In this document: positions 46,811 to 62,912 of the stretch, piece by piece
Layout of the letters: every line of letters starts with the position of its first letter
How positions within the stretch are numbered: position 1 is the first letter of the stretch
NCBI GenBank assembly: GCA_034005205.1
Contig: JAVEVD010000001.1
Span: 33,197 to 97,196 of the forward strand
Source: Steroidobacteraceae bacterium
GTDB lineage: Bacteria; Pseudomonadota; Gammaproteobacteria; Steroidobacterales; Steroidobacteraceae
DNA: 64,000 nucleotides
Reading direction: 5' to 3'
Notes under the pieces: generated by a model
What the model saw: the letters and a program-made list of their open reading frames with translations, nothing else
Databases searched by the model: none
Told to the model about the DNA's origin: nothing
Program-made: the position numbers and the translations under genes

Positions 46811-47692
46811 TCAAAAATCGCCAGGGTGCGCGCCGGCCGCTTCCTTGCCGTCATCCGCCGCTTCATCTTCGAGCGCCGGTTCGTCTTCGAGCGCCGGCTG
46901 CTCGTCGCGCTGCGTCTCGGTCGCCGACTCCGACTGCGCGTCGCCCGTCGGCGCCTCGGATGTGGCCGATGACTCGGAATCGGACTGCGGCTCCAGCTGC
47001 ACCGCTTCGCCGGACTCTGCTTCTTCGGACTCTGCTTCGCCTGCGGACTGATCGCTCGGCGCCGGCGGCGCAGGACCATCATCGGCGGTGGGCTCCTGCG
47101 GCAGCAGCCCCCGCACGACCGCCTGCTCGCGAAACTCCACTGCGAGCTTCGCGCCTGCATCACGCATCGCGACCGCCGTGGCGGCGGCCAGCGGCGGCGC
47201 GCTCGACAGTCCCGCCGCCGGCGCTGACCCGTAGCCGGTGAAGCCCCACGAGTCGGCGAGCTTGCCGTCGGGCAGATATACGTTCACGCGATACTTGATG
47301 CTGACGGCGTAGAAGGACGAGCCGGCGTCGCGCGGGGTTACGAACGCGTACTCCTCGATGCTCGGCTCCAAGATCGCGGCGATCCCGTCGATTTGCGTCC
47401 CGGCGTTGACGCTGTCGACGGTGACGACGTGCTCGAACATGGCCGTGATCAACCGCTTCACGCCTTCGGTCTGGGCGGCGCCCAGCTCGACCTGCCACTT
47501 GGTGCTCCAGCGCTCCTCCTGGTGAACGTACTGCGAGAAATCCGGGGGCAGGAACAGCGCCACGCCGATCGGGATCTTCACGACCAGGGGCGGGGGGATA
47601 TTGGCGCTGGCCACGAGATGGACCGGACCACATCCCGCGAGCGCGACGGCGCAGGCGGCGAGCACCGAGACGATGAATTGGCGGGACTTCAC
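46811..47692 (-). CDS. Lipoprotein with acidic low-complexity tail (last gene of cluster)
   Basis: GTG start overlapping the upstream stop (GTGA). MKSRQFIVSVLAACAVALAGC lipobox. C-terminal Glu/Asp/Ser-rich about 90 aa. Confidence 0.7.
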   Translation of the reverse strand: MKSRQFIVSVLAACAVALAGCGPVHLVASANIPPPLVVKIPIGVALFLPPDFSQYVHQEERWSTKWQVELGAAQTEGVKRLITAMFEHVVTVDSVNAGTQIDGIAAILEPSIEEYAFVTPRDAGSSFYAVSIKYRVNVYLPDGKLADSWGFTGYGSAPAAGLSSAPPLAAATAVAMRDAGAKLAVEFREQAVVRGLLPQEPTADDGPAPPAPSDQSAGEAESEEAESGEAVQLEPQSDSESSATSEAPTGDAQSESATETQRDEQPALEDEPALEDEAADDGKEAAGAHPGDF

Positions 47693-48765
47693 GAGGACCT
47701 CGGTCGCGGGGGTTCGGCGCTGCGCGTCGGAGCAGCCGCCGCATCACCTATACGAAACTGCGGGCCGCGGCGTTCCGGATCGTCCAGCCCCACGAACGTG
47801 CCGCCGTTGCGCTGGCACATGATGCGCATCAGGGTGGCGAAGCGGATGCTGGTGTATTGCGGGGCGTCCGGGCGCACCGGGAAGCCGATCGCATGGATGC
47901 GCACGCGCCGCTCGCCGGTCTCGTCCTCGCGATTGATGATGTCCACGCCCTTGAGCACGGAGTCGATCGACGGCCCCGTGAACTCGTCGCCGAACACGTA
48001 CAGGCTGATTCTCTTGTCCTTCGAGTAATACGTGCGGATCGCCTCGACGATGCCTTCGATCGGGCTGGAGTTGGAGAACGCGTTCCAGGTGCGCAGCCGC
48101 TCGATGACCGTGCGGCGCTGCGAAGGAGTGTCGGGAATCCACTTGCCGCGATAACTCGTGAACATGTAGGCGCCTTCGTCATTCATCACCTGAAAGCCCT
48201 TCACGCGCGGGTAGATGTTCAGGGTCTCCTCCACCTTCTGCAGCATCAGCGGCCAGGCGTAATTGAACATGCTGCCCGAGGTGTCGATGATGAAAATGAT
48301 GTACTCGCTGTCTACGGGTATGCCGCCGATCGCATCGTCCTTCTTGCGGCGGAAACCTTCACCGAGCAGGCGTTTCATCTCCTCCGTCAGCGTCTGCTGC
48401 GCGGCGGCGAGCTGCCCTTCGAGCTGGTTGGCGACGTCGGCTTCCTGCCGGGAGGCGCGGTGACGGCCGCGCACATCGCTCAGATCGCCCTGCAGGCGCG
48501 CAATACGCGCTTTCACATCCGAAAGCTGTTCCTGCCGCGCGGCGAGATCCCGATTTAGGATCTCGCTCTGTCCTTCGATGTCGACCAGTTCGTCCTGCAG
48601 CTTCAGAAGCTGCGCCTGAAGATCCTCTTGCGCCTGCTCGATTTCCGGCGAGCGGATGTTGCTCAGCACCAGCAGCAGCACGACTGAACCCAGACCACAG
48701 GTGATGCAGTCCAGGAACGAGATGCTGAAGATCTCCGTCTCGCGGCGGATCATGCGGCGAGCCAC
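47689..48765 (-). CDS. TM-anchored coiled-coil vWA-domain protein (paralog 1) with ExbD/TolR-like Asp-containing anchor
   Basis: 358 aa. MARRMIRRETEIFSISFLDCITCGLGSVVLLLVL, about 110-aa heptad-rich region, vWA MIDAS start IIFIIDTSGSM. Confidence 0.8.
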   Translation of the reverse strand: MARRMIRRETEIFSISFLDCITCGLGSVVLLLVLSNIRSPEIEQAQEDLQAQLLKLQDELVDIEGQSEILNRDLAARQEQLSDVKARIARLQGDLSDVRGRHRASRQEADVANQLEGQLAAAQQTLTEEMKRLLGEGFRRKKDDAIGGIPVDSEYIIFIIDTSGSMFNYAWPLMLQKVEETLNIYPRVKGFQVMNDEGAYMFTSYRGKWIPDTPSQRRTVIERLRTWNAFSNSSPIEGIVEAIRTYYSKDKRISLYVFGDEFTGPSIDSVLKGVDIINREDETGERRVRIHAIGFPVRPDAPQYTSIRFATLMRIMCQRNGGTFVGLDDPERRGPQFRIGDAAAAPTRSAEPPRPRSS

Positions 48766-48844
48766 TACACCCTCCTGCTGCGCGGCGCAGCCATACCCGC
48801 GGCCGTCGTAGGATGCATGGTCGAGCGCCTCATGAGCCGCCGCT

Positions 48845-49939
48845 TCATGGCCAATCCTTCGACGGGCTCAGGAAGGAGCCGCCGGTGCGCCGCGCAGCGA
48901 GCCAGAACGCGCTCGGCGCCATCGGATCCCCCTCCATGGGCATGAGGATCACATTGAACGGCACGCCCTGGGGATACTTGGCGAACGCGCGCTCGAACAG
49001 CTTCAGCCGCGCATCGCCGTCGATGGTCTTGCGGATCATCGGCGCGCCGGCGCCCTGGGTCGGCAACCCGTCGGTGATCATGATTACGTTGTCCGGACGC
49101 GGATTGAGCGCATTCATCGCGGCGAACGCGTTCTCGACGCTGGTGCCGTCCTGCGGAATCGTCTTGCCGAGCGCCGCGAGCGCCTCGCTCATGGCGTTCG
49201 GATCGCTGACTTTCAGCCACTTGCCGTCCGTGTCGGGCGCCAGCGCCCATGCCTTGGTGTTGAACGCGTAGATCTGAAACTGGCTTTCCATCGGCATCTG
49301 CGCCGCAAGCCACTCGACCGTGGAGACCGTGCGGCGCCACTTCTCCGACAGGAGCTTGCGTGACTCCGGCATGTTGCGCATGCGCAGGATGTTGACCACC
49401 GTCTCATCGAGCATGCTCGCCGAAACGTCCACCAGCAGCACGATTCGCTGGCCGGAGATGCGCAACCCCGTGAGGTACTGGCGGTCCCCGGAGCCCACGA
49501 AACCGCGCACGCGCGTCCCGGGGGCGCTCACCTCCCGCGCCGCGCCCTCCAGGCGCCGCGCACCTTCCTCGAGCGACTTCAGATCGGCTTTCAGCCGCTC
49601 GATCGCCTCGCGCCGAGACAGTGTTTCCTTCTCCGCATCCGCGAGTTGCTCGCTCAGACGCTTGGTGTCTTCGATGATGCGCGCGCCCAGACCCTCGGTG
49701 CGCACGCGCTCTTGATCGGATTCGATGATCGAATTGCGCAACACGACCAGGCGCTGATAGCCCTCGAGCACCTGCTCTTCCATTTTCTCGACCTGCGCGC
49801 TCAGCTCCCGCGACTCGGTCGCGAGGCGCAGACCGCCCTGCGCGTTGATCAGCGTATAGACGAGCACCACCGACCCGAACGCGCAGGTGATGCAGTCGAG
49901 GAACGACATGCTGAAGACTTCAGTCTTGCGGCGCGCCAT
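48845..49939 (-). CDS. TM-anchored coiled-coil vWA-domain protein (paralog 2)
   Basis: 364 aa. MARRKTEVFSMSFLDCITCAFGSVVLVYTLI, coiled coil, MIDAS start IVLLVDVSASM. Confidence 0.8.
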   Translation of the reverse strand: MARRKTEVFSMSFLDCITCAFGSVVLVYTLINAQGGLRLATESRELSAQVEKMEEQVLEGYQRLVVLRNSIIESDQERVRTEGLGARIIEDTKRLSEQLADAEKETLSRREAIERLKADLKSLEEGARRLEGAAREVSAPGTRVRGFVGSGDRQYLTGLRISGQRIVLLVDVSASMLDETVVNILRMRNMPESRKLLSEKWRRTVSTVEWLAAQMPMESQFQIYAFNTKAWALAPDTDGKWLKVSDPNAMSEALAALGKTIPQDGTSVENAFAAMNALNPRPDNVIMITDGLPTQGAGAPMIRKTIDGDARLKLFERAFAKYPQGVPFNVILMPMEGDPMAPSAFWLAARRTGGSFLSPSKDWP

Positions 49940-51323
49940 CGTCGTTCACCAGCTGAATGAGCTCGAGCGTGACGCCAGGCGCTCCGAGGCGCAGACGATC
50001 GCCCACCGTGAGCACGGTGCGCCCGGAAACGCGTTCCTCATTCACGTACGAGCCGTAAGTGCTGTGGTCTTCGACCAGCACAGCGCCGTTGCGTCGTACG
50101 AGCGAGCAGTGCGCGCGCGACACGCCGGGCGCGGCGCCGGGCAGCGCCAGGGCGCGGCGCTCGGGCGGCACGGACCAGCCGACGACCAGCGGCTGCTCCG
50201 TGATGCGCCACGCGCGCCCTTGGAAAAGCACGTGCGTCGGACGCAACGGTGCGGGCGTCGCCTGCGGGTCCGAGGCGGTCAGGCTCCCTTCGGCGCGGGG
50301 CGTCGGCAGTTGATACACCAGCGCGAGTGCGTCGGCCGGCCTGCGGATCGCAGCTTCGTACTGCAGGGCGCCGAGCGCAGCAGCGCCGCTGGGCAGGACC
50401 TGGATCGTGCAATCGCGCAGCTTGTGCAGCTCCTCCAGAAGTCCCGGGAGCGCCGCGACTCGCGCCGAGACGCGCAGCTCGATCGGCATGCCAGCTACAC
50501 GCGCACCCTGCACGAGGCGCACGAGCTCGAGGTAATGTGACTGAACCGCCTCGATGAACTGCTCGCGCTCCAGTTCGATCTCCAGGGCGCGGCCGGCGAA
50601 CTGCATCGGCAGGCTGATGCGCTCGGCTTCGCGCAGCGCGGCCAGCCAGCCCGGCAGCTCATCGAGCAGGCGCTGCTCGCTGCTCGCCTCATGCAGCGGA
50701 TCGAAGCGCGTGCGGCGAACGAACTGCTCGGCGATAAATTTCATCCACGCCTGCTGCAGCGCCAGCACGCCGTGGCCCAGCGCAATCTCATAGCGGCTGC
50801 GTCGCAGGCCTCCCGGAGAACCGCCGGTCTGCTCCAGCACCGTGAGGATGGCCTGGTGCAGCTCCAGCTCGAGATGCAGCACGCGCTCGGGCGCAGGCTC
50901 GAGGCTGCAGGCGGCGAGTGCGGCGTCCACCAGCCCTGCAACTGGGAGTCCGGTTTCGTTCACCACGCCGAGCAGCAAGCTGAGCTGTTCGCGCGTGTAC
51001 CCGGCGGGCGCCGCCAGAAGCACGCCCTCCTCCTGCGACTTGTAAGAACCGAGCAGACTGCGCGCTTGCGCGAACGCGATGTCGGCCGGCGTACGCGCGA
51101 ACCGCGAGGCTCGCGTGAGCGGCGCAGTGCTCAGTCCACGCCAGAAACCGGTCTGCGCGAGCAGCGGCTTGAGGCGCACGCGGGCCGCCGCCTCGGCGCC
51201 GGTCACGATCCCCTGCTCGTCGAGAATCGCCATACCGGGCGCTTCCGCGACGACTTGCGCAGGCTCCTCGCCGTTGCGACGCGCAAGCACGAGACCCGAA
51301 TCGATGAGCGACAACGAAAGCAT
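49920..51323 (-). CDS. Degenerate Hsp70/actin-like ATPase-fold domain fused to C-terminal FHA domain
   Basis: 467 aa. The N-terminal about 340 aa are collinear with the DnaK nucleotide-binding domain (NBD) (VLLAAPAGYTREQLSLLLGVVNETGLPVAGLVDAALAA versus [35 protein letters not shown]), but the phosphate motifs are replaced. FHA: GVSRAHCSLVRRNGAVLVEDHSTYGSYVNEERV...VGDRLRLG. Confidence 0.7.
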   Translation of the reverse strand: MLSLSLIDSGLVLARRNGEEPAQVVAEAPGMAILDEQGIVTGAEAAARVRLKPLLAQTGFWRGLSTAPLTRASRFARTPADIAFAQARSLLGSYKSQEEGVLLAAPAGYTREQLSLLLGVVNETGLPVAGLVDAALAACSLEPAPERVLHLELELHQAILTVLEQTGGSPGGLRRSRYEIALGHGVLALQQAWMKFIAEQFVRRTRFDPLHEASSEQRLLDELPGWLAALREAERISLPMQFAGRALEIELEREQFIEAVQSHYLELVRLVQGARVAGMPIELRVSARVAALPGLLEELHKLRDCTIQVLPSGAAALGALQYEAAIRRPADALALVYQLPTPRAEGSLTASDPQATPAPLRPTHVLFQGRAWRITEQPLVVGWSVPPERRALALPGAAPGVSRAHCSLVRRNGAVLVEDHSTYGSYVNEERVSGRTVLTVGDRLRLGAPGVTLELIQLVNDDGAPQD

Positions 51324-51437
51324 TGATCGATAATTCGCGTGACGGGCGCCTGGCGACTCGTGATTAGCGGTTGCTCAGCGGCCGGCCAGTCTCCCGACCG
51401 CTGCCCCTACAAGCCACGGGTCGCCGGTCACTCATCT

Positions 51438-52271
51438 TCATCTCACTTGCATGTGCCTGATAAGGTTCTGATCGATCCAGTGGTCGGTGTCGTGGACGAA
51501 CTGTTCCTGCGCCTGCTGCACCTGGTGCAGGAAGAACATCAGAATGATGGTGAGCAGCAGGGCGACGAATGTGGCGTTGAAAGCGATGCCCAGGTCGGAA
51601 GTGACGCCGGTGATGTCGCCGGTCACCGCCTTGTGAGCCTGCAGCAGCGCATCGCCGATGTGGCGCACCGTGCCGATGAAGCCGATCGCCGGGATCGCCC
51701 AGGAGATGTAGCGGATCATCGCCAGGCCTGAGTCAAGCCGGTCCGCCTCGGAATCGCAGACGGCGCGCGCAGTCTCGGCGGAATCGCGGATGCTGCGCGT
51801 GGCTGCGAAGCGATCCAGCGTGCGCTTCAAGGCGCGCACGACCAGCATGGGCTTGTCTTCCTCGGGCAGCTCCTCGAGCTGGCGTGCGTAATCCTTCGCA
51901 TCTTCGGGCAACACCTTGATGCCCTCCGGCACATGGATCAGCTCGCGCTCGAGCAGCTTGCGCTCGCGGCGCACGAGCAGCCCCTTGTAGCCGAGTATCA
52001 GCAGCGCCCATATGAAATGAATGATCGCCGCTTCCTGTTCGTAGTCCTTGATGACCAGGAACACCGAGCGATCAGGCACATAGTCCGGATCGGCGCGCAT
52101 GCGCGCCTGCTCGGCGGCGATGACTTCCGCGCCGGCCGGCCGAATCCACGCCACGTAAGCCGCATGCACCGCCAGCACCGTGACGATGAGAGCGAACAGC
52201 GTGACGAAGAACTCGCTCGGATAGTGAAACCGGCGAGGCGTTGCGGCGTCCGAGGCTGTTGTCGTGACCAT
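51438..52271 (-). CDS. MotA/TolQ/ExbB-family proton-channel protein
   Basis: 277 aa, 4 predicted TM. C-terminal IPAIGFIGTVRHIGDAL...DLGIAFNATFVALLLTIILMFF matches the MotA_ExbB core (compare ExbB APFVGLFGTVWGIM...GIAEALLATAIGL). Confidence 0.8.
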   Translation of the reverse strand: MVTTTASDAATPRRFHYPSEFFVTLFALIVTVLAVHAAYVAWIRPAGAEVIAAEQARMRADPDYVPDRSVFLVIKDYEQEAAIIHFIWALLILGYKGLLVRRERKLLERELIHVPEGIKVLPEDAKDYARQLEELPEEDKPMLVVRALKRTLDRFAATRSIRDSAETARAVCDSEADRLDSGLAMIRYISWAIPAIGFIGTVRHIGDALLQAHKAVTGDITGVTSDLGIAFNATFVALLLTIILMFFLHQVQQAQEQFVHDTDHWIDQNLIRHMQVR

Positions 52272-52327
52272 GAATTTGAGTCTCTGCTTGGGTCCGCTCG
52301 GACGGCGCAGTCCTCGCGACCGGCGGA

Positions 52328-52822
52328 TCAGATGTCGATGGGGAACGAAACGTCGAAATCGGCGCGCACCTGCTCCGACGGCGTAAAGCGCTGCGGCGAG
52401 GCGCGGCCGGAAGCGTTCGAAGCCGGCGGCGGCGCGTCTCGCTGGTCTTCCTCGGCGGTCGGCGCAGACGGCTGCGCTTCGTCCTGGGCGCCGGCGGCGT
52501 CCTTGGCGGCGTGCACTTCGTCCTCCGAGACCTGCCGTCCAGGCGCATTCTCGGCGGACGCGGCGCTTTCGCCTGGCTGCGCCGCGGCGCCTGCGGGCGC
52601 CTCTGCGGTGAGCGCCGGCATCGGCGCCGCCGCTGCAGGCTTGGCCGACGCCGCGCTCACGCTGCGCGGCTGCAAAGCTTCCGTCGCGAACAAGATGGAG
52701 CCCGAGGTCGCCACCGCGGCAAGCATCACCGTCATTCGCATCTGCGGGTTCGAACCCCGCCGGCGCCGCGATCGATCCGTTGAACGATTCATGTCCACCC
52801 TCTCATACGCGCATCGCCTCAA
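52328..52822 (-). CDS. Ala/Pro/Glu-rich secreted hypothetical protein (start uncertain: 52822, 52792 or 52741)
   Basis: Signal-like MRMTVMLAAVATSGSILFATEA, a low-complexity middle, C-terminus RFTPSEQVRADFDVSFPIDI. The longest start overlaps the upstream stop by 4 nt. Confidence 0.5.
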   Translation of the reverse strand: MRRCAYERVDMNRSTDRSRRRRGSNPQMRMTVMLAAVATSGSILFATEALQPRSVSAASAKPAAAAPMPALTAEAPAGAAAQPGESAASAENAPGRQVSEDEVHAAKDAAGAQDEAQPSAPTAEEDQRDAPPPASNASGRASPQRFTPSEQVRADFDVSFPIDI

Positions 52823-55230
52823 TGTGCGTAGCGCGCAATGCGAAACCCGACGTCGTCACGCGCGCTGTCGCCGAAATCGCGGGCCGCGAGCCGCAGATCC
52901 GTGACGCTGGAGCTGCGCCAGCTCGAGCCGCGAATCACGTGCTGACGTCCCTCGGCGGGGCCAGTCGGATCCACTGCAACCTCCCGAGCATCCATACTCA
53001 CAGTGTAGAGATCGTGCACCCACTCAGCGACGTTGCCGCCCAGATCGTGCAGTCCGAGCGCGCTGGGCGGAAACTTGGCTACGGGCGCGGCCGCCGCGAA
53101 GCCGTCGTCGTAATCCGGAACGACATTCGTCACGAGCAGTCGTGCGCTCGCATCTGCGTAATTGCCCGAGGCGGCGGCGACCGGCAGCGTATCGCCCCAT
53201 GGATAGCGGCGCAGCGCTCCGGAACGTTCGCGCCGCGCAACCCACTCCCATTCTGCATCGGTCGGCAGACGATAGCCGTTGGTCAGCGGATTCACCGCAA
53301 CCAGCGCATCGCCCTTCTTCTCGTAGGCAGGCTCGAGCCCTTCCTGTTCCGAAAGCCAGTTACAGAACGCGGCGGCGTCCTGCCAGCTCACGCCGACCAC
53401 CGGCTGATTGTCGAGATCGAGCGTGTGCTGTCCTGCAATGCCGGAACGATGTTGCGGACGGAACCGGCGGAACTGGGCGTTGGTCACTTCGGTCACGCCG
53501 ATATAGAACGGCCGCCTCAACTCCACTTCACGCTGCGCTTCATTCGCGCGGCGTCCGGGTTCGCGCCGCGGGCTGCCCATGACGAATCGCCCGAGCGGCA
53601 TCAGGCGCAGCTCTTGATCCGCCTTGGTGCGGATCGTCGCGGGCGTCTGCGCGAGCCTGGCTTGCGCCGGCGTCAGCAGCGTAGCTTCGACCACTTGCGG
53701 CACGCCGGGGCGCGGCGTGACTGTGGCCGTATAGTCGACGTAGCCGGATTTGCGAACGGTGATCTCGTGCGTCGTCGCGACGAGCCGCAGCGTCTGGTTC
53801 GCCGCGCCGCTCGCCTTGCCGTTCACGAACACCTGAGCGTCCGCGGGCTGCGCGCGCACGGTGACCTCCCCGTAGACGCCGGTCAGCGGCACGGACAGTG
53901 AGCGCTGCTCGCCGGGCGCAAGCTTGAGCTCGCGCGTCGCGGCTTCGTACCCGGGCCGTGTGAGCACGACGGCGTGCGTCATATCGGGCTTCAGCTCCAG
54001 CGTTAGCGGGGTGCGTCCGCGATACACGCCCGCCACCGAGACGTTGGCGTCCGCAGGCTCCGAACGCAGCGTGAGCTGCGCGTCCGGCAACCCGAGCTGC
54101 ACCGGTCCGATGGTCTGTGGCTCATTCGCCTTGACCTGGATGTCCGTGCTCCAGGGCTTGAAGCCCTCCAGCCGCAGTTCGATCGGATGATTGCCGGCGA
54201 CGATCTGCGTAGTGAGCGGCGTGACGCCGCGCCGCTCGCCGTTCACGAGCAGCTCGGCGCCCGTGGGCTGCGAGGTGATGCTCACGTCCGCCCAGTTGGG
54301 CGTGAGCTGAGGCGTGAGGGTCTGCACCTTGCCGCCGCCCTCCACTTCCACCTGGGCGCTGAACGGCTGGTAGCGTTGCGCGGCGATCGACACCGTATGA
54401 CGCCCGGCAGGAAGCTCGAACTCGCCCGGCGTCGCGCCGAGCGTCTCTCCGTCGACGCTCACGACCGCGCCCTCGGGCGCATCGATGCGCAGCCGTCCTG
54501 GAAGCTTCGCCAGTTTGAGCTCGAACCGCTGATTGGGCTCCGCCGTGACGCGGGCCTCGAGCTGCGCGGGCTCGTAGCCCGGAAGCTGCGCACGAAAGCG
54601 ATACTCGCCCGGGCGCAACAGCACCCTCTCGCCCAGCCGTACGGAAAACGTCGAACCTTCCACAGTCACCCTCGCCTCGGCCGGTTCGGTGCGCACGCTG
54701 ATCGAGGTCGCCGTGAACACGAACCACAGTACGAAAGCCGCCGCGACCGCCAGTGCGCCCAGCGCCAGCCGCATCGGACTGAGGCTGAACGAGCGTCGGG
54801 CGCGCGTCGGCTGAGTCGGGCGGAACTGCGCCGCATCTATGCGCTCGGCCTCCGCGTCGCCGGCCCCACGCAACCGCGCGCCGGGCTCGATGACGGGCGG
54901 GACAGTGATGTTGTCCGCGGCCCCGTCTTCGACCTCGATCACCGGGCCATCCTCGTTGGCCGTGAGTCGCAGCCGCGCGGCGCCGAAGTTCACTACGTCG
55001 CCGGGACGCAGCCATGTGGAGCGCGTGACTGGCTCGCCGTTGTGCAGCACCTCGGCGCCCTCGGCCGGCTGTACGAAGAGCTGCTCCTCGTGCAGCCCCA
55101 CGTAAGCCTGCGCGCCGGGCGGACGACCCGCCATCACCACGGCGGCGCCTTCGCCGCCGACCGCGATGGGAAAGTCCTCGGCCGTGAAGCGACGTTCGCC
55201 CAGCGCCTCGCGCAACAGCAGCCCGCTCAA
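52819..55230 (-). CDS. FHA-like / TM / PEGA-repeat / FGE-sulfatase (SUMF1-like) domain protein
   Basis: I place the start at the TTG at 55230 (GAGGA 6 nt upstream; overlaps the kinase stop as TTGA). FHA-like FPIAVGGEGAAVV...LHNGEPV...GDVVNFG. TM LALGALAVAAAFVLWFVF. Repeated PEGA-type modules (e.g. DAPEGAVVSVDGETLGATP). C-terminal FGE domain (WQDAAAFCNWLS, GNVAEWVHD, VIRGSSWRS). Confidence 0.8.
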   Translation of the reverse strand: MSGLLLREALGERRFTAEDFPIAVGGEGAAVVMAGRPPGAQAYVGLHEEQLFVQPAEGAEVLHNGEPVTRSTWLRPGDVVNFGAARLRLTANEDGPVIEVEDGAADNITVPPVIEPGARLRGAGDAEAERIDAAQFRPTQPTRARRSFSLSPMRLALGALAVAAAFVLWFVFTATSISVRTEPAEARVTVEGSTFSVRLGERVLLRPGEYRFRAQLPGYEPAQLEARVTAEPNQRFELKLAKLPGRLRIDAPEGAVVSVDGETLGATPGEFELPAGRHTVSIAAQRYQPFSAQVEVEGGGKVQTLTPQLTPNWADVSITSQPTGAELLVNGERRGVTPLTTQIVAGNHPIELRLEGFKPWSTDIQVKANEPQTIGPVQLGLPDAQLTLRSEPADANVSVAGVYRGRTPLTLELKPDMTHAVVLTRPGYEAATRELKLAPGEQRSLSVPLTGVYGEVTVRAQPADAQVFVNGKASGAANQTLRLVATTHEITVRKSGYVDYTATVTPRPGVPQVVEATLLTPAQARLAQTPATIRTKADQELRLMPLGRFVMGSPRREPGRRANEAQREVELRRPFYIGVTEVTNAQFRRFRPQHRSGIAGQHTLDLDNQPVVGVSWQDAAAFCNWLSEQEGLEPAYEKKGDALVAVNPLTNGYRLPTDAEWEWVARRERSGALRRYPWGDTLPVAAASGNYADASARLLVTNVVPDYDDGFAAAAPVAKFPPSALGLHDLGGNVAEWVHDLYTVSMDAREVAVDPTGPAEGRQHVIRGSSWRSSSVTDLRLAARDFGDSARDDVGFRIARYAH

Positions 55231-57629
55231 ATGCGATCCTCGCAACGAATCACCACGGGCTCGAGCGCGGCGCCGGGGGCGACGTCGATCTGCCGCCGCA
55301 CGTCGCGATAACCGGGACGCGTGCCCACGATCGTGTATCTGCCCGGCTCCAGCGTCAGCGAGCGTTCGCCGAACGCGCCCAGCTCGCCGACGCGATAAAC
55401 GGTGACGTGAGTGAGGTTGTCGGACCGTAGCGCCACCTGCACCGGCTGCCCGGCTCGGGCGACCCATTCCTCCAGTTTCGCGATTTGCCGCTGCAGCACC
55501 GGTCCGCGATCGGGAACGCTCCTGGCGCGCTCGATGGTCTCGGCAGCTGCGGCCCGCACCGGTTTGCTGAACAGCCGCTCAGGCTGCGTGAGGTAGAGCT
55601 CGATCTCCTCGTGCAAGGCCGCGCGCGGCGAGGCGCGCTGCACCCCTTGGTTCGCCGCGACGATCGTCGAATCCAGCTCGAGCACCGCGCGGTACTCGCG
55701 CAGCGCTTCGACCCAGCGCTCCCGCCCTTCCAACTCCTGAGCCTCCCGCAGCTTGGCGGCGATCGTTTCGGTGCGCTGCTCCTGCTCGATCTGCGCCAGC
55801 GCCTGCGCGATCTCCGGCGCTTGCGGGCGAAGGCCGCGCGCCGCCTCGAACGCGCTGCGCGCGCTGGCATAATCCGCATTCGCCATCGCCGCGTAGCCGC
55901 GCGCCATGGCGCTCGCGAACGCGTCCGCGGCCTGTTTACCTTCGATACGCGCGACGCCTTCGGCGGCGCGCGACGTTTGTGCGTCTAGCGCGAGCGCCTT
56001 GCGGAAACCCGCGAGCGCCGGCTCCATCTGGCCAGCGTTCTCCAAACGCTCGGCTTCGGCGAGCAGGCGCAGCACTTCGTCGAGCACGCCGGCGCGCTTC
56101 AAACCCTGCTCGGCGTGCGCGTTCTGCGGCTCGATGTTCAGCGCCAGCGCGAAAGCCGCAGCCGCATCCTCGGAACGGCCCTCCTGCAAGGCCGTATCGC
56201 CCGTCGCGAGCTGCTCGCGCAGCACCTCGCCGGCCCGCTTTTCCAGCGCATCCAGCAATGGCGCCATGCGCTCGAAGTGCTGCAAGGATGTTTGATACTC
56301 GCGCTGCTGATAGGCGGCGTCGGCGGCTGCGAGCTGGGCGCTGGCCTGGCGGAAATCGGCGGCGCCCCAACGCTCGGCGGCGCGCTCGACGAGCTGTTGC
56401 AGCCGATTTTCGAGCGGCGCCCGGATTTCGTCGACGCGCTGTTTGGCGCGCGCCAGCGCCGCGAAATCGATCTCCTCGACATTCTTGCGCTCGTTGTCGG
56501 GTTGGGCGGCTGCTGCGACATCCTGTGCGCTCGTCGCCTGGCGGTGGCGCGCACCCGCGTCATCCTGGCCGACCCAGCGCGGCAGCCCGACGAACACGAA
56601 CAACACGCCGGCCAGTCCCACAGCGATCGCCGCAGCGGCCACGCGCCGACGGCGGTCCTGACCGCGACGGATCTCGGCGGCGCTCGCGCCCGCGGCGGAC
56701 GTGCGGCGCCATTCACCCTTCAACGGCTCGCCGTGGCCCGGCGGCGGCCGCAGGGCGGGGGGTTCGATGCGCACGGCTTGGTGAGTCTGTTCGCTGCTCA
56801 TGATCGATGACGTCAGGGACGACGACATGCCCGTACCAAGCGACGCGCCGAGCGCCGCTTCGAGTTCCCGTTCGACAGTCTGGATATCCGGCCGTTCAGT
56901 CGCACGCTTCGCCAGCATCCTGCAGACCAGCGCGGCGAGCGCCGGCGGAGCCGAGGCGGGCGGCGCAGGCGGTTCGCGGCGGATGCGGTCAGGCGTTGCA
57001 TGCGGATAAAACGGCGGATACCCGGTCAACAGTTCATACAACATCGCCCCGAGGCCGTACACATCGTCCGCGGGACTCGCGGGCCGCCCGTCGAGTTGCT
57101 GCGGACTCATGCTGTACGGCGAGCCGCCGCCCACGGCGGCCGGGCCGTCGCCGATCGTGAGCGCCGTCGCCGTACCGAAGTCCGCGAGCAACGCGGCGCC
57201 TTCGTGCGACAGCAATACGTTCGACGACTTGACGTCACGATGCACCAGCCCGGCGCGGTGCGCATACGCAAGCGCCGCAGCAACCTGACGAGCTGCGCGT
57301 ATGATCGCCTCGACTTCGCCCCCGCGCAGGCGGGTCAGGTCGCCTCCTGGGGCGTAGTCCATGACGAGCCAGGCGCGCTCGCCCGAGCGGTAGAGACCGT
57401 GCACGCGCAGGATGTTGGGATGATGAAGCCTGCGGACCAGGGCGTACTCACGCTCGAGCATCCGCAGCGCGTCCGGATTCCGCGCCAACTCGGGCGCGAA
57501 CAGCTTCACCGCAGCGGGACGGCCGCGCAGTCGATCCTGCACCAGCCATACCTCCGCCCCGCCGCCCGCCCCGAGGCGGCGCAGCAACGTGAATCCGGCA
57601 GACAGCGCCTGCCCGCTTTCGAAGTTCAT
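55227..57629 (-). CDS. Hanks-type Ser/Thr protein kinase with TM, periplasmic TPR repeats and PEGA-like C-terminus
   Basis: 800 aa. G-loop LGAGGGAEVW, AAVKL, HRDVKSSNVLL, DFGTA. TM VAAAAIAVGLAGVLFVFVGL. TPR-like repeats. C-terminal LEPGRYTIVGTRPGYRDV. Confidence 0.9.
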   Translation of the reverse strand: MNFESGQALSAGFTLLRRLGAGGGAEVWLVQDRLRGRPAAVKLFAPELARNPDALRMLEREYALVRRLHHPNILRVHGLYRSGERAWLVMDYAPGGDLTRLRGGEVEAIIRAARQVAAALAYAHRAGLVHRDVKSSNVLLSHEGAALLADFGTATALTIGDGPAAVGGGSPYSMSPQQLDGRPASPADDVYGLGAMLYELLTGYPPFYPHATPDRIRREPPAPPASAPPALAALVCRMLAKRATERPDIQTVERELEAALGASLGTGMSSSLTSSIMSSEQTHQAVRIEPPALRPPPGHGEPLKGEWRRTSAAGASAAEIRRGQDRRRRVAAAAIAVGLAGVLFVFVGLPRWVGQDDAGARHRQATSAQDVAAAAQPDNERKNVEEIDFAALARAKQRVDEIRAPLENRLQQLVERAAERWGAADFRQASAQLAAADAAYQQREYQTSLQHFERMAPLLDALEKRAGEVLREQLATGDTALQEGRSEDAAAAFALALNIEPQNAHAEQGLKRAGVLDEVLRLLAEAERLENAGQMEPALAGFRKALALDAQTSRAAEGVARIEGKQAADAFASAMARGYAAMANADYASARSAFEAARGLRPQAPEIAQALAQIEQEQRTETIAAKLREAQELEGRERWVEALREYRAVLELDSTIVAANQGVQRASPRAALHEEIELYLTQPERLFSKPVRAAAAETIERARSVPDRGPVLQRQIAKLEEWVARAGQPVQVALRSDNLTHVTVYRVGELGAFGERSLTLEPGRYTIVGTRPGYRDVRRQIDVAPGAALEPVVIRCEDRI

Positions 57630-57690
57630 TCGTTTTCGTCAGCGCACCGCCCCGCCGCCGCGGCGGGCGGTCAGCGCGCATCGTGCGACG

Positions 57691-58944
57691 TTATTCGCCG
57701 CCGCTCGACGACGCTGCCGCGTCGGCGGACGCCGCCGGCGCCTGCGCAGGCAAACCAGTCTCGTTCTCGTACAGCTCCTTCAGCAGTCGGCGCCATTCCT
57801 GGAACTGCTCTTCCGCCGTGCCTTTGAGCTGCAGAGTGCGCCCCTCCACCTCGACCACCATCGGTTGTACTTCCGCCTGGAACGACTCGCCCAACTGCTG
57901 CAGGGAGTCGGAATGCATCTTCACCTCGGCGCCCTTGTCGAAGCCGCTTTTCACCGCGTAAGCGCCGCCGAAGACGGCGCCGGTGGCGGCCGCCTGCCCG
58001 GCGTACGTGTTCGCTTCGCTGCCGACCACCAAGCCGCCGACGATGGCGGCCGCGCCGAGCAGCTTTCTGGTAAGCGCCGAACGACGCGCTTCGTCCTCGG
58101 CTTCATGCTCCGCATAGCTGTAGCGGCGCCAGTTCGTGTAGGGCTCAGACATGTTGTCGGCGAACAGCGCGTAATGCTCATTTATGGTGTCGAGCAGCGC
58201 ATAGTCGCGCTCGCGGATGCGATCCATGCGCACCATCAGCGGATCACTCTCGGCGGGCAGGCGCACGATCTGACGCTGACCGCTCTTGCGATCGACTTGC
58301 ACATACGACTCGAAAGCGTAAGGCGCGAGCTCCGCCGCAAATCGCAGCTCCGATACGCGGCGCACGTTCTCCAGGTCCTGCGGCGTGAGCTGCTGACGGT
58401 AGGCCAGCATGTCGTTCGCCAGGTTGCTGTACAGGTTCTGAAATGGATCGCGCGGCCGACCGCTCGAGTCCTTGTAGGAGCGAGTATCGGCGATCTGCTG
58501 GTATTCCTTGCTGAACCACTGTCGACCGGTCGCGTCCTCCACCGTGACGTGCAGCCTGAGCTCCTGACCATTCGACTCGAGGATCTTGCCCGAAACGTAT
58601 ACATCGAGCGCCTCGGCGTCGGCCGGTATCACGCGCACTTGGCCCCAGTGGCCGGCGCCCTCGAGCGTATTGCGGATCTGCATCGGCAGGTAGCGCGCTT
58701 CGGCCCGCCGCACCTCCGGGAAGATGTGCTCGCGCGCTAGCTTCTCTTCATCCTCGGGCACGTTCTCATCGAACAGCCGCACGCTCACGTCGAGCAGTTG
58801 CTCGGCCGGGATCTCGTGAGTGGCCTGGATTGCTTTGACGTATGGCAGCGGGCGGATCTCGTGAGTGACGCAGCCCGCGGCTGCGAGCGCGGCCAGCGCG
58901 GCCAGCGCCGCGCCAATCGGGCGATTCGAGCGGTTCATAAGCAT
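57691..58944 (-). CDS. Lipoprotein, function unknown, with Gly-zipper-like segment
   Basis: 417 aa. AALAALAALAAAGC lipobox. LLGAAAIVGGLVVGSEANTYAGQAAATGAVFGGAYAV glycine-zipper-like stretch. Confidence 0.65.
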   Translation of the reverse strand: MLMNRSNRPIGAALAALAALAAAGCVTHEIRPLPYVKAIQATHEIPAEQLLDVSVRLFDENVPEDEEKLAREHIFPEVRRAEARYLPMQIRNTLEGAGHWGQVRVIPADAEALDVYVSGKILESNGQELRLHVTVEDATGRQWFSKEYQQIADTRSYKDSSGRPRDPFQNLYSNLANDMLAYRQQLTPQDLENVRRVSELRFAAELAPYAFESYVQVDRKSGQRQIVRLPAESDPLMVRMDRIRERDYALLDTINEHYALFADNMSEPYTNWRRYSYAEHEAEDEARRSALTRKLLGAAAIVGGLVVGSEANTYAGQAAATGAVFGGAYAVKSGFDKGAEVKMHSDSLQQLGESFQAEVQPMVVEVEGRTLQLKGTAEEQFQEWRRLLKELYENETGLPAQAPAASADAAASSSGGE

Positions 58945-58984
58945 GTGTCCGGCAACCGTTGATCTGTCCTCACGAAACGTCCCG

Positions 58985-60433
58985 TCAACTCGTCGCCTTC
59001 TTGTAGTTGCGATACTCCTGCCAGAGCTTCTCGCGCAGCTCCGGATCCGTCTCGTTCATCGCGGCCTCGCGAAGCTGGCGCGCTACGATGTCATCGTCGC
59101 TGCCATCGGGGATATCCGCCGGGACAGTGCTCGGACCGCTGCCGCCGCCGGCCCCGCCGCCGACGCCGCCTCCTCCGCCGCTGCGCTGGCCGCCCTGACC
59201 CTGACCCTGACCCTGGCCCTCATCTCCGCCTTCGCCCTGACCGCTCGCGCCGCCCTGGCCAGCCTGATCGCCCGCGCCGCCCTGACCGCCCGCTCCCTGA
59301 CCGTCGCCGCCGGCGCCTTGCGCGTCCGAACCTCCGCCGACGCCTTCCTCATCCATCGTGGATCCGGCGCCTGCGCCGCTCCAACCTGAGCCGCGGCCGC
59401 CGCGCTGGCCGGCGATCACCGCCTGCTCCTGGCGAATCCGCCCATCGAAGACGCCGAACGAAGCGTCCAACTCACGATCGATCTGGGCCACCCGCTCGCC
59501 GCTCGTCATCGGGCCGCCGCCAGGTCCGCCGCCAGATTCGCCATGGGCCCCAGATGCGCCGCCTGAACCGGCCGCGCCGTGGCCTGCGCCATACGCGCCG
59601 CCCTGACCGCCCTCGCCGCCCTGGCCGCCAGCCGAACCCGCGACTGCGCCCGAGCCCGCAGCTCCACCCGGACCGCCCTGCGCACCGCCGCCCATGCCCG
59701 GCGAGCCGCCCTCTGCAGCGCCGCCGCCGGACCCCCCGGAAGCGCCGGAAGATCCGCCGCCGCTAGAACCTCTGAAAATGCTCTCATTCGCGGCGCCGCC
59801 GCCCATTGCGCCGCCCGCCTCGGGCGCGGCGCCGCCGGCTGATGATCCCGCGCCGCCTGCGGCGCCGCCGTTCGGAGAAGGAACGCCCACAGCCGGCGAA
59901 CCGCCGACGCTTGGAAGTCCCACGCTCCCGGCGCCGCCGGAACCCGAACCGCCGCCGGTTTGACCAGTCGCACCGCCGCCCGGCGCGCCCGCCTGGCCGC
60001 CCTGGCCCTGAGCGCCTCCGCCCTGGGAAGTTCCGCCGCCCTGCGCGCCGCCGCTCTGGCCGCCCTGCACGCCTCCGGAACTAGCGCCGGATCGCCCGCC
60101 GCTTTGCGAACCACCCGATTGACCCTGGCTGCCGCCCGAGCTCGACGGCATTCCCGAGGGAAGCGACGCACCCGAGCCGGACTGCCCGCCGGGCGAGGGC
60201 ATGCTCGACGAAGATCCGCCGCCGCTCGGCGAGCTGGAGCCGCCGGTGGAGCCGGGCGAGCCGCCGCTTGGCGAAGGCGGCGTGGAAGACGGCGTCGAGG
60301 TGGAGGACTGGCTCGCGCAACCGCCCATGAGCAGCGCCGATACGGCGCTCACTGCCGTGACGTGCGCTGCAATCACGCACACCCTCCGCAACCGCGAGGG
60401 GCGTGTGCGTTGCGACCTGTGCTGAGCGTTCAT
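58985..60433 (-). CDS. Gly/Ser/Ala/Gln-rich low-complexity lipoprotein
   Basis: Start at the Met at 60433 (MNAQHRSQRTRPSRLRRVCVIAAHVTAVSAVSALLMGGC). About 400 aa are almost only G/S/A/Q/P. Ordered C-terminus DDDIVARQLREAAMNETDPELREKLWQEYRNYKKATS. Confidence 0.6.
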   Translation of the reverse strand: MNAQHRSQRTRPSRLRRVCVIAAHVTAVSAVSALLMGGCASQSSTSTPSSTPPSPSGGSPGSTGGSSSPSGGGSSSSMPSPGGQSGSGASLPSGMPSSSGGSQGQSGGSQSGGRSGASSGGVQGGQSGGAQGGGTSQGGGAQGQGGQAGAPGGGATGQTGGGSGSGGAGSVGLPSVGGSPAVGVPSPNGGAAGGAGSSAGGAAPEAGGAMGGGAANESIFRGSSGGGSSGASGGSGGGAAEGGSPGMGGGAQGGPGGAAGSGAVAGSAGGQGGEGGQGGAYGAGHGAAGSGGASGAHGESGGGPGGGPMTSGERVAQIDRELDASFGVFDGRIRQEQAVIAGQRGGRGSGWSGAGAGSTMDEEGVGGGSDAQGAGGDGQGAGGQGGAGDQAGQGGASGQGEGGDEGQGQGQGQGGQRSGGGGGVGGGAGGGSGPSTVPADIPDGSDDDIVARQLREAAMNETDPELREKLWQEYRNYKKATS

Positions 60434-60585
60434 CGTGTCTCCTGCGATCGTCTGGTCGCGATCGGATGCTTGCGCGGCTGCCGCCGCGAAAACTGTGCGA
60501 TCCACCACCTGAACGACGGCTGAGCGTCATTCGATCCGCGCACGCGCGTTCTGTCCGCGCAGACGCTGTGCCCCGCGCGGGCGGC

Positions 60586-61389
60586 TCAGTCGACCCGCGC
60601 CGCCGCGTCCTCCTGACCCGAGCCGAGCAGAAACGACTTGAGTTGCCCGGCCAGACGATCGCAGGCCGTGCTCTGCACCGGCGCGATCAACGGAATTGGC
60701 GCAATCGCGCCGATCATCACCGACGTGCCCTTCACGCCTGTAGTCAGACTGCCGGCGCTCAATCCGGTGCGCAGGTCCCAGATCGTCGCTTCGTAGTCGG
60801 AGGTCTTCTCCCACCAGCCGAGCCCCAGGCATCCCGCCCCGCCCGGCCCGGCGGCGCAGGCGATGCTGCCGCCGCCGTCGGTCTTCTCCGTGACGCCGTC
60901 CACCCAGACGATGTAGCGCACGCCCATCTCGGTCACCCGCTCGCTCACGCCGGGTCGGGCGAGAAACGCGCTAAACCCTTGCGCGTTGGCCGGAGCGGTG
61001 CTCGGCTCGAGCCACGGGTACAGCGCGTCGATGAAATGGTGATCAGCGTAGATCTGGAACGGACGATTGCGCAGGCTGCTGCGCGGGGCGACGTCCTTGC
61101 CCGTGCGTTGCCTGTCGGCAACGGTTGCGGAGACTGCTTCACCGACCAGTTCGCGCTCCAGGCAATCGAGGAATTTGTCTTCTGTGCCCGTGCCTTCCAG
61201 ATGCGGCTTGGCGAGCAGCACGATCGCCTCGTCTGATCGGATTTGCGTCGGCGCCTCACGCACCTCTTCTATCTTGGCGGTCATACAGCCGCTAACGCCG
61301 AGCGCCAGCGAGCCGAGCGCCGCAACGCGCAGCGACCTGGCGACGGTCCGCTGCAATGAATGTGCAATAGAGGTTTGTTTCGCCGACAT
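60586..61389 (-). CDS. Lipoprotein, function unknown (first gene of cluster)
   Basis: Start at the Met at 61389 (MSAKQTSIAHSLQRTVARSLRVAALGSLALGVSGC). Several Cys residues. No family recognised. Confidence 0.6.
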   Translation of the reverse strand: MSAKQTSIAHSLQRTVARSLRVAALGSLALGVSGCMTAKIEEVREAPTQIRSDEAIVLLAKPHLEGTGTEDKFLDCLERELVGEAVSATVADRQRTGKDVAPRSSLRNRPFQIYADHHFIDALYPWLEPSTAPANAQGFSAFLARPGVSERVTEMGVRYIVWVDGVTEKTDGGGSIACAAGPGGAGCLGLGWWEKTSDYEATIWDLRTGLSAGSLTTGVKGTSVMIGAIAPIPLIAPVQSTACDRLAGQLKSFLLGSGQEDAAARVD

Positions 61390-61439
61390 CGCGCCGCAGC
61401 CTGCCGCCTGATGCATGAGCGTCTCCCGGAATGCGCCGC

Positions 61440-61455
61440 CGGGATCGCGATCCCG
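61440..61455. promoter_or_regulatory. Perfect 16-bp palindrome CGGGATCGCGATCCCG about 50 nt upstream of the first cluster gene
   Basis: Read directly and cross-checked against the frame of ORF 61415..62764. Confidence 0.35.
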
Positions 61456-62896: not shown

Positions 62897-62912
62897 AACC
62901 GCTAATCGCTTC
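62897..62912. repeat. AACCGCTAATCGCTTC (single degenerate copy of the TAACCGC element)
   Basis: Contains the TAG stop (62902-62904, minus) of the HWE kinase gene. ATTAGCGGTT recurs in the opposite orientation at about 51363-51372. Confidence 0.55.

Follow-up and report, generated by a model that had tools for sequence, protein, structure and literature searches.

Known ion-driven motors of the 5:2 type power flagella, nutrient import, outer-membrane stability, gliding, type 9 secretion and phage defence, and each newly understood class of them has opened a field. The gene cluster described here lies in a 64,000-nucleotide stretch of a Steroidobacteraceae genome (assembly GCA_034005205.1, contig JAVEVD010000001.1, positions 33,197 to 97,196; referred to below as the window) and consists of eleven co-directional open reading frames (ORFs), g01 to g11, on the minus strand at 46811-61389. 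It is built around a TolQ/ExbB-like gene (g07) and two genes for transmembrane (TM) proteins with vWA domains (g09 and g10), and recurs, along with a fixed set of partners, in two or more bacterial phyla. The partners are a kinase-TPR protein (g04), a PEGA protein with an FGE-like domain (g05), an Hsp70-like protein (g08), four lipoproteins (g01, g02, g03 and g11), a small secreted protein (g06) and, downstream of the eleven genes, a periplasmic protein with TPR and TonB_C domains. The predicted axle of the motor bears integrin-like, metal-dependent adhesion domains, and most of the partner set is unannotated.

Comparison with described systems

The core of the cluster has a published counterpart. 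A computational study (Mol Biol Evol 2025, 'Origin and Evolution of Bacterial Periplasmic Force Transducers', PMC12204202) presents in its Fig. 4c-d a TolQ-like gene with a heterologous TPH-vWA pair; in the AlphaFold3 model of this combination Asp residues lie within a Thr ring, and the distribution reported there covers Proteobacteria and Verrucomicrobia. The likeness lies in a TolQ-like gene tightly linked to two genes for TM-anchored vWA proteins, in the Asp residue, and in the lack of tolR, exbD or motB and of the SHLS-type motif by which TonB and TolA bind their motors. The gene order here, g07-(g08)-g09-g10, places a tolQ-like gene with two vWA genes as in the TPH-vWA type. Membership of that type was judged from the features that the article describes, and a search for stators of about 30% identity returned mostly the group at about 50% and a minimal class at 32-38% (see below), with no Idiomarina-type loci retrieved. 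The stator and vWA-pair core is already published as a computational prediction without an assigned function. In the text compared, the one word match to FHA is FhaC, and TPR is named only for the other vWA family of the study. The present cluster adds the partner set, the Hsp70-like and kinase/FHA layers, the TPR-TonB_C protein, the g06 motif and the occurrence in Acidobacteriota.

The closest characterised composite is the Agl-Glt gliding machinery (bacterial focal adhesion complex) of Myxococcus xanthus, the only characterised system found with a comparable mix of modules. It combines AglRQS, a 5:2 stator of the TolQ/TolR type, the FHA-TM protein GltG, TonB_C-like domains in GltG and GltJ, the TPR proteins GltC, GltD, GltE and GltI, the vWA lipoprotein CglB and other envelope components, and the FHA domain of GltG, next to a TM helix, has been modelled against the AglR pentamer (PMC11761067). 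The kinase-FHA pairing of the present cluster bears some resemblance to GltG. The comparison is one of module types, taken from the published description. In Agl-Glt the vWA domain is carried by a surface-exposed outer-membrane lipoprotein and not by a stator axle, AglQ and AglS are ordinary TolR-like proteins, and there is no Hanks-type kinase, FGE-like domain, PEGA stalk or Hsp70-like protein. Outer-membrane barrels of the GltA/B/H/K type were not seen in the conserved neighbourhood of the present cluster.

With Ton and Tol-Pal the cluster shares the ExbB/TolQ fold and pore threonines of g07, the Asp of the axle and a linked TonB_C protein. It differs in that a coiled coil and a vWA domain replace the periplasmic domain of ExbD/TolR, the predicted axle is heterodimeric, g07 has an extra N-terminal TM helix, and no TonB-dependent transporter, TolB or Pal gene is present in the cluster. 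In TonB and TolA a TM anchor carries the SHLS motif; the TonB_C protein here is secreted, has TPR repeats and lacks such an anchor.

A similarity of logic only connects the cluster to the threonine phosphorylation pathway of the Pseudomonas aeruginosa type VI secretion system (T6SS; TagQRST-PpkA-Fha1-PppA), in which the periplasmic TagR belongs to COG1262 (PMC13584744). In that pathway TagR and an outer-membrane lipoprotein work upstream of a TM Hanks-type kinase, and a cytoplasmic FHA protein reads the phospho-Thr made by the kinase and switches on an envelope-spanning machine. COG1262 is the FGE/SUMF1-type family. The cluster contains no T6SS genes, PP2C or TagS/T ABC module; its FGE-like domain is on a TM protein of its own with a PEGA stalk, and its FHA domain is fused to an Hsp70-like domain.

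PorKLMN/GldKLMN, the type 9 secretion and gliding motor of Bacteroidota, also include a 5:2 motor (PorL/GldL with PorM/GldM), a dimeric axle that spans the periplasm and an FGE-fold protein (PorK/GldK). However, g05 is no outer-membrane lipoprotein but has a TM helix as its anchor in the inner membrane, g07 resembles TolQ/ExbB rather than the two-TM GldL, and PorN, SprA and PorV genes are absent here. Zorya is likewise a non-flagellar 5:2 motor with unusual appendages and accessory proteins, but the cluster gave no PADLOC match to ZorA-D and has no long ZorA tail, no ZorB peptidoglycan-binding domain and no ZorC/D/E-like effectors.

The literature search returned nothing on the full partner set, the dead-FGE/PEGA stalk, the Hsp70-like scaffold, the kinase/FHA layer or the TPR-TonB_C link. 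The first-pass annotation, made from the sequence, knew of no characterised system that joins a motor to vWA, FHA, kinase and FGE components. As a claim of novelty this goes too far, for the core is present in PMC12204202 and the module types overlap in part with those of Agl-Glt; for the full composite no description was found.

Conservation and gene order

A genome scan with the stator alignment identified 80 loci at 49-60% stator identity, in Woeseiaceae, Steroidobacteraceae, Acidibacter, Nevskiaceae, Pseudomonadales and metagenome-assembled genomes (MAGs) of Thiotrichales and Acidobacteriota. Additional look-ups, together with a scan of metagenomes, extended the set to Porticoccaceae, a 5.5-Mb genome and many marine contigs. 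The order g02-g03-g04-g05-(g06)-g07-g08-g09-g10 recurs in every stator-scan locus with enough flanking sequence. Family hidden Markov models were applied to every ORF in 54 loci whose flanks reach at least 7.5 kb upstream and at least 5.2 kb downstream of the stator gene. All 54 contain g04, g05 and both vWA genes, g09 and g10, while g08 was detected in 52, the C-terminal motif of g02 in 51 and g03 in 50. g06 was scored in 27, which is an undercount due to its low-complexity sequence, the motif being visible by eye in more. The exact order g03-g04-g05-g07-g08-g09-g10 is found in 36/54. Conservation of the gene neighbourhood had been named in the first pass as a check on the cluster, and the recurring gene order refutes chance juxtaposition. 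The cluster is genuine, and its conservation spans at least two bacterial phyla.

The remaining three genes, g01, g11 and the TPR-TonB_C gene, were each found in 25 of the 54 loci and move as a set, lying after g10 in the window (g11 and the TPR-TonB_C gene), upstream and on the opposite strand in L059, L063, L072 and L079, and at the two ends of a twelve-gene co-directional operon in L086 and L167, where the TPR-TonB_C gene is first and g11-g01 are last. Because the TPR-TonB_C gene accompanies g01 and g11 into these rearranged positions, it is probably a component of the system, which then extends to position 45379. The boundaries drawn initially (46811-61389) hold for the eleven genes, and the true edge probably lies further out.

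Within the family the cluster is closely conserved, with stator proteins 80-92% identical to those of Steroidobacter, Peristeroidobacter and Povalibacter, and it is common among the Gammaproteobacteria of soils and sediments (Steroidobacteraceae, Woeseiaceae). The complete genome of Steroidobacter denitrificans (CP011971, about 197.6-211.8 kb, ACG33_00840 region) carries the complete cluster and, as this species is cultured, the mechanism proposed below is directly testable.

Acidobacteriota-type loci (L011, L030, L033, L053, L082, L083) also carry the complete cluster, some of them on contigs of 0.4-5.9 Mb. Their stators are 51-57% identical to g07, a value equal to that of distant gammaproteobacterial families, which points to transfer of the cluster between phyla. 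In the Acidobacteriota versions g03 has a plain signal peptide in place of the lipobox. The clusters in L082 and L083 are flanked by integrase, transposase and PhdYeFM antitoxin genes, with a DruA-domain gene in L083; such surroundings, which resemble a mobile element or a defence island, were not seen in the other loci. No g10 homologues were found in plasmid and phage collections. One contig, L084, is labelled Limisphaerales and shares its downstream neighbours (methyltransferase, SufBD and ABC ATPase genes) with L167, the 5.5-Mb genome; in view of this shared flank, the Verrucomicrobia label of L084 may be a binning error.

Gene calls

Each of the eleven minus-strand ORFs of the first-pass annotation is present in the ORF list and translations, and three of the overlaps it described were verified in the sequence, namely GTGA at 47689-47692, 20 nt at 49920-49939 and TTGA at 55227-55230. 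The overlap at 52819-52822, read as possibly ATGA, is TTGA. The remaining intergenic gaps are 40-152 nt. A promoter and terminator scan of the cluster gave fewer matches than shuffled sequence and, being uninformative at 66% GC, provides no operon information. Every domain named in the first pass was recovered by Pfam, profile comparison or structure prediction, and the composition, topology and reading as a single apparatus all held up under the tests described here. Coordinates and predicted products are listed in Table 1.

Table 1. Genes of the cluster and selected other genes of the window
Gene	Coordinates	Strand	Predicted product
g01	60586..61389	-	Lipoprotein, lipobox VSGC, unannotated family
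g02	58985..60433	-	Lipoprotein, long Gly/Ser-rich disordered linker, C-terminal module of ~40 amino acids DDDIVARQLREAAMNETDPELREKLWQEYRNYKK
g03	57691..58944	-	Core lipoprotein, unannotated family, Gly-zipper-like hydrophobic segment near residues 295-335
g04	55227..57629	-	Cytoplasmic Hanks-type Ser/Thr kinase, Ser/Thr-rich juxtamembrane segment, one TM helix, periplasmic TPR
g05	52819..55230	-	Degenerate FHA-like domain (cytoplasmic), one TM helix, five PEGA and probably non-catalytic FGE-sulfatase-like domain (periplasmic)
g06	52328..52792	-	Small secreted protein: signal peptide, Ala/Pro/Glu-rich linker, conserved C-terminal end
g07	51438..52271	-	TolQ/ExbB-like proton-channel subunit, putative pentameric stator, one extra N-terminal TM helix
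g08	49920..51323	-	Cytoplasmic Hsp70 nucleotide-binding-domain-like domain fused to C-terminal FHA
g09	48845..49939	-	TM-coiled-coil-vWA protein; VWA_2 match, N-terminal transpore motif, metal ion-dependent adhesion site (MIDAS)
g10	47689..48765	-	Paralogue of g09: transpore helix (Asp19), coiled coil, divergent vWA (DTSGS)
g11	46811..47692	-	Lipoprotein, lipobox LAGC, unannotated family, acidic disordered C-terminal tail
TPR-TonB_C gene	45379..46779	+	Periplasmic protein, cleavable signal peptide, no TM anchor; convergent, downstream of the cluster
Radical-SAM gene	61712..62830	-	Radical-SAM protein, upstream neighbour
Histidine kinase gene	62902..63852	-	HisKA_2/HWE-type histidine kinase
PLD-family gene	23921..25447	-	Cardiolipin-synthase-like protein

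Stator and axle proteins

The g07 product matches Pfam PF01618 MotA_ExbB (E 5.1e-11, 42.9 bits, cutoff 22.9). Its scores against the NCBIfam TolQ and ExbB equivalogs are far under their cutoffs, so that it is neither TolQ nor ExbB proper. An AlphaFold2 model (predicted local distance difference test score, pLDDT, 87.5) was compared with the PDB using Foldseek, and the top 43 matches were all ExbB or TolQ chains, with a best E of 6e-4 and target-normalised TM-scores of up to 0.72; MotA and PomA scored lower. Searched against PDB sequences, the family profile gave nothing at E <=0.01, and its match to TolQ was used for residue register only. In this register GFIGTVRGI is placed over GLFGTVWGI of Escherichia coli TolQ, and AFN(S/A)T over ALIAT. 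T201 is nearly invariant and T234 invariant among 43 diverse homologues; the pore threonines of the known systems are taken to be T145/T178 in TolQ and T148/T181 in ExbB. The fold, the Pfam match and one extra N-terminal hydrophobic helix all agree with the earlier description of g07 as a MotA/TolQ/ExbB-family protein, and the extra helix makes the count of four TM helices reasonable.

The g09 and g10 proteins are paralogues (BLASTP E 4e-11, 31% identity across the N-terminal half) with the same layout of a short basic tail, a TM helix, a coiled coil of about 100 residues and a vWA domain. The vWA domain of g09 is recognised by Pfam VWA_2 (E 2.9e-6, 28.3 bits, cutoff 27), and that of g10, which has no Pfam match, by comparison of its C-terminal half with the g09 vWA family (hhalign probability 99.96%, E 4e-39). 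The MIDAS residues of g09 are at least 90% conserved, as is DxSxS in both proteins, and the position of the MIDAS Thr differs in g10. The N-terminal motif of g09, FSMSFLD..C.FG, is kept across about 70 homologues. In the form FS(L/M)SFLD..CGFGA the TM motif is common to both proteins and, with its Asp, near-invariant in about 70 loci for each, the only two exceptions being in draft MAGs.

Pfam searches of the products found no ExbD, TolR or MotB gene in the cluster, and in g09 and g10 neither an ExbD/TolR domain (PF02472) nor an OmpA-like peptidoglycan-binding domain. The TM helices of both proteins also lack the His of the SHLS motif. g09 and g10 would act as axle proteins, yet by domain content they are not of the ExbD/TolR family. 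The ExbD-like anchor that had been suggested for the vWA pair is borne out by the near-invariant Asp motif in both paralogues and by the lack of an ExbD, TolR or MotB gene.

Kinase, FGE-like and Hsp70-like proteins

The kinase domain of g04 matches PF00069 Pkinase (E 1.2e-39), and a TPR_2 match was also found. Its catalytic motifs are intact, LGAGGGAEVW corresponding to GxGxxG, AAVKLF to the VKL Lys, VHRDVKSSN to HRD and ADFG to DFG, and from these motifs the kinase appears active. Homologues exist that have no kinase domain (489-520 amino acids) or have a pseudokinase that lacks HRD. The TM-TPR part of g04 is the core portion and the kinase domain is an add-on.

In g05, Pfam detects five PEGA stretches (E 5e-61) and an FGE-sulfatase domain (PF03781, E 1.3e-46). 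The N-terminal 105 amino acids are related to the FHA family of g08 (hhalign probability 97%, E 1e-10), with a deletion exactly at the position expected for SRxH. GldK/PorK (TIGR03525) is the best NCBIfam match of g05, at 124 bits against a cutoff of 350, and GldJ also matches; with the score so far under the family cutoff, the similarity to GldK is that of a generic FGE fold. The protein has a TM anchor and no lipobox. The catalytic Cys pair of human FGE is C336/C341; judged by eye, the matching stretch of g05, RGSSWRSSSVTDLRLAARD, contains no Cys. By analogy with PorK/GldK, the FGE-like domain is probably a binding or structural one. Inspection by eye of the TM helices of g04 and g05 revealed no His of the SHLS type.

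The product of g08, which shares 99% identity with a protein of a Steroidobacter sp. MAG, matches PF00498 FHA (E 2e-11, 44.6 bits, cutoff 20.7). Its N-terminal 340 amino acids gave no Pfam HSP70 match, and a sequence search of the PDB with g08 returned weak FHA matches only; structure prediction was needed to reveal the fold of an Hsp70 nucleotide-binding domain (AlphaFold2 pLDDT 80.5). Foldseek aligned the model with the nucleotide-binding domains of Ssz1, Hsp110 and DnaK (E 2.7e-16 to 1e-13; target-normalised TM-score about 0.69, for chains consisting of that domain only). Judged by eye against the Hsp70 consensus, the phosphate-1 motif (consensus DxGTT) reads LIDSGLVLA and the phosphate-2 motif DLGGGT is replaced by LHLELELHQA, and the Hsp70-like domain is probably not an ATPase. 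In the FHA domain (49920-50210), S402-R403-x-H405 and N428 are invariant among close homologues.

Minimal and elaborated forms of the cluster

The clusters fall into classes that differ in their domain content. In the minimal class, with stators 32-38% identical to g07, there are the g02 motif, g03, a TM-TPR protein, a PEGA-FGE protein, a small ORF and the stator gene with its pair of vWA genes; g08 is missing, and neither g01 nor g11 occurs within 10 kb. A second class (e.g. L084, L086 and L167) has an Hsp70-like protein without FHA, a TPR protein without a kinase and g05 without its N-terminal domain. In the third class a pseudokinase without HRD is present, again with no FHA on g08 and no N-terminal domain on g05, and the window's class has an active-looking kinase, FHA on g08 and the FHA-like domain on g05. 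The pseudokinase clade includes L024, L059, L063, L072, L073 and L079 and the metagenome loci L098, L101, L109, L113 and L117; the lack of HRD was checked for L024-L079, and the metagenome loci show weak kinase similarity only. This clade may represent either an intermediate or a decayed regulatory layer.

Covariation between the kinase and the FHA domain of g08 was scored on 77 evaluable loci. FHA is present in 40 loci and absent from 1 where the kinase is strong, present in 5 and absent from 15 where it is weak or a pseudokinase, and present in 1 (a weak match) and absent from 15 where there is no kinase; as few independent clades are involved, these counts are suggestive and not a statistic. 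They suggest that the active kinase domain and the g08 FHA domain were gained and lost together. This supports the phospho-threonine regulation proposed in the first pass, a step that we still infer rather than observe.

The minimal core is g03, the TM-TPR protein, the PEGA-FGE protein and the stator with the vWA pair. The Hsp70-like protein is an added layer, and the kinase and FHA domains, which do not belong to the core, were added in particular lineages. This natural layering of core, Hsp70-like scaffold, and kinase with FHA separates mechanical from regulatory parts.

Lipoproteins and other partner proteins

Lipoboxes are visible in g01, g02, g03 and g11 and are retained in their homologues. 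Five component families (g01, g02, g03, g06 and g11) found no annotation in Pfam, NCBIfam or PDB profile searches, even with distant homologues and the family profile included; g01 was also without a PADLOC match, g02 and g03 without a Pfam match, g03 without a PDB sequence match and g11 without any family match. The g03 family alignment nevertheless has 36 invariant columns. In g02 the lipobox and the last 40 or so residues alone are conserved, and the linker varies freely in length and composition. The consensus of this C-terminal module (58985-59110) is DDDI(V/I)ARQLREAAM.E.DPEL.EKLW.EY..YKK, and it is almost identical in Porticoccaceae (L086) and in the contig labelled Limisphaerales (L084). 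Homologues of g01 adjoin those of g11 in the rearranged loci L058, L059, L063, L071, L072, L079, L084, L086 and L167. The TPR-TonB_C protein matches TPR_12 (E 3e-21) and TonB_C (E 1e-9).

The description of g06 as a secreted Ala/Pro/Glu-rich protein was correct, and its start was moved from 52822 to the likelier ATG at 52792, which is preceded by a Shine-Dalgarno-like run, GAGAGGG, and followed by a charged n-region and signal peptide as in homologues. The extreme C-terminus, F.PSE..D..VSFP(I/V)DI-COOH, is near-invariant from Steroidobacter through to the minimal class, and in Gammaproteobacteria, Acidobacteriota-type loci and L084 small ORFs that separate the FGE gene from the stator gene end in it (e.g. 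L084 5160-5399, L086 9686-9973 and L157 5913-6089). Acidic C-terminal peptides would be classic ligands of both MIDAS sites and TPR clamps and, speculatively, the g06 terminus could be a docking peptide for the TPR clamp or for the MIDAS site of a vWA domain.

Proposed machine and alternative explanations

The explanation favoured here, and judged probable though by no means certain, is that the cluster encodes one trans-envelope machine around an ion-driven motor of the 5:2 type, regulated in this lineage by the kinase/FHA layer. In this model g07 would form a pentamer in the inner membrane, and the transpore helices of g09 and g10, each with its conserved Asp facing the Thr ring, would enter the pore as a heterodimeric axle. 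The coiled coil of about 100 residues would carry the two MIDAS-bearing vWA heads across the periplasm towards the outer membrane, and proton flux would turn or pull the axle. The heads may engage the stalk of five PEGA repeats and FGE-like domain in g05, the TM-TPR part of g04, the lipoproteins g01, g02, g03 and g11, g06 and the TPR-TonB_C protein, these conserved partners being candidate targets or stators of axle movement. The Hsp70-like scaffold g08 would be a later addition, with a Hanks-type kinase fused to the TPR protein and FHA to g08 in this lineage, and a degenerate FHA-like domain found less consistently on g05. The TPR and FGE-like parts might then sense a signal in the periplasm and activate the kinase, and its phospho-Thr sites might recruit g08 through FHA, by which the motor would be switched on or positioned. 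The domain identities, the conserved Asp and Thr residues, the synteny, the layered gain and loss of parts and the kinase-FHA covariation are observed; use of the proton-motive force, the 5:2 stoichiometry, the binding partners and the direction of signalling are things we infer, and for the output the best guess is an outer-membrane or surface process, such as tethering, adhesion or the moving of a surface component. If the model is true, the kinase-FHA layer would be a second pathway, after that of the T6SS, in which a Hanks-type kinase gates an envelope nanomachine.

It is an even call whether the system constitutes a distinct functional class of 5:2 ion-driven motor beside Mot, Ton, Tol, Agl, Gld/Por and Zor, to be defined by the vWA heterodimer axle, at least five unannotated envelope families, the dead-FGE/PEGA stalk and, in some lineages, kinase/FHA control through an Hsp70-fold scaffold.

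Several observations weigh against the model of one regulated machine. The structural match of g07 is at a Foldseek E of about 1e-3 with TM-scores of 0.5-0.7, and its family profile finds TolQ among PDB sequences weakly, at E 0.012. Five component families are without any annotation. The FGE-like domain of g05, with its Cys pair missing, may be enzymatically dead. On the regulatory side, the kinase-FHA covariation comes from a small number of independent clades and is without phylogenetic correction, and the cluster has no PP2C phosphatase. The FHA domain of g08 has W383 at the position of the GR Arg, which is mostly S, T, L or V in relatives and Arg in two of fifteen sampled; with this Arg replaced, binding of phospho-Thr by g08 is not assured.

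As an alternative, the genes could specify a surface-motility, adhesion or secretion apparatus like Agl-Glt or GldKLMN/PorKLMN, in which the vWA heads or an FGE-like ring move or energise a cell-surface adhesin or an outer-membrane translocon. This overlaps with the favoured explanation, differing in the assumed output only, and taken by itself is unlikely. The stator, FHA-TM, TonB_C, TPR, vWA lipoprotein and other lipoprotein modules of Agl-Glt have counterparts of the same types here, the FGE-like domain of g05 finds its best NCBIfam matches among gliding proteins, and in type 9 secretion an FGE-like lipoprotein works with a 5:2 motor. However, the match to GldK is to the generic fold, the conserved neighbourhood showed no gene for an outer-membrane beta-barrel and none of the SprA/PorV or GltA/B/K kinds, and the vWA domain is fused to an inner-membrane axle and not to an outer-membrane lipoprotein. 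To our knowledge, gliding has not been described in the host families.

It is distinctly unlikely that the cluster is a Zorya-type device for envelope surveillance or phage defence, in which a 5:2 motor senses perturbation of the envelope and the kinase or other products act as transducers or effectors. MotAB-like 5:2 motors can serve in defence, as Zorya shows (mentioned in preprint 10.1101/2024.03.12.584617), and the kinase domain of g04 scores well against the PADLOC models of the defence kinases MADS6 and PD-T4-6. The Acidobacteriota clusters, as similar to g07 as those of distant Gammaproteobacteria, suggest horizontal transfer, and L082 and L083 have the transposase, antitoxin and DruA-domain flanks described above. 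However, PADLOC matched none of the non-kinase products and the kinase matches reflect generic Pkinase similarity, so that identity with a known defence system was rejected. The cluster encodes neither a nuclease, protease or NADase nor any other recognisable effector, it has no ZorA-like tail and no peptidoglycan-binding ZorB-like domain, and variants without the kinase are common. The stator is strongly conserved across Steroidobacteraceae in a fixed chromosomal context, which resembles a housekeeping locus more than a patchy defence island, and the plasmid and phage collections yielded no copies in the search with g10.

That two or three operons (a kinase/FGE pair, a stator-vWA unit and assorted lipoproteins) lie side by side by chance is highly improbable, for although two of the gaps, of 114 and 152 nt, are long enough to contain internal promoters and the positions of g01, g11 and the TPR-TonB_C gene differ between genomes, the genes keep together and in order where stators are 32-60% identical, across at least two phyla and with unrelated flanks, the mobile modules move together and stay near the cluster, and domain gain and loss are correlated between genes.

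Flanking genes

The window has a GC content of 64-70%, in a genome of 66% GC, and its other genes are ordinary chromosomal ones for an RND efflux pump, MacB-type ABC transporters, a PLD-family enzyme, G6PD, a glycosyltransferase, PBP4 and an alpha-amylase. A plus-strand ORF at 61415-62764 was considered as a divergent neighbour of the cluster and rejected as an Arg-rich antisense artefact of the radical-SAM gene. The true upstream neighbour is this co-directional radical-SAM gene, about 320 nt from g01, with the histidine kinase gene further upstream. The radical-SAM gene adjoins the cluster in several Steroidobacteraceae-type loci (antisense matches in seven), and in Steroidobacter denitrificans a sigma-70 gene takes its place. 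In the window some 21 kb separate the PLD-family gene from the cluster, and in acidobacterial-type loci (L082 1414-2778 and L083 802-2277) a gene of this family directly adjoins it; the proximity to the cluster is probably a coincidence.

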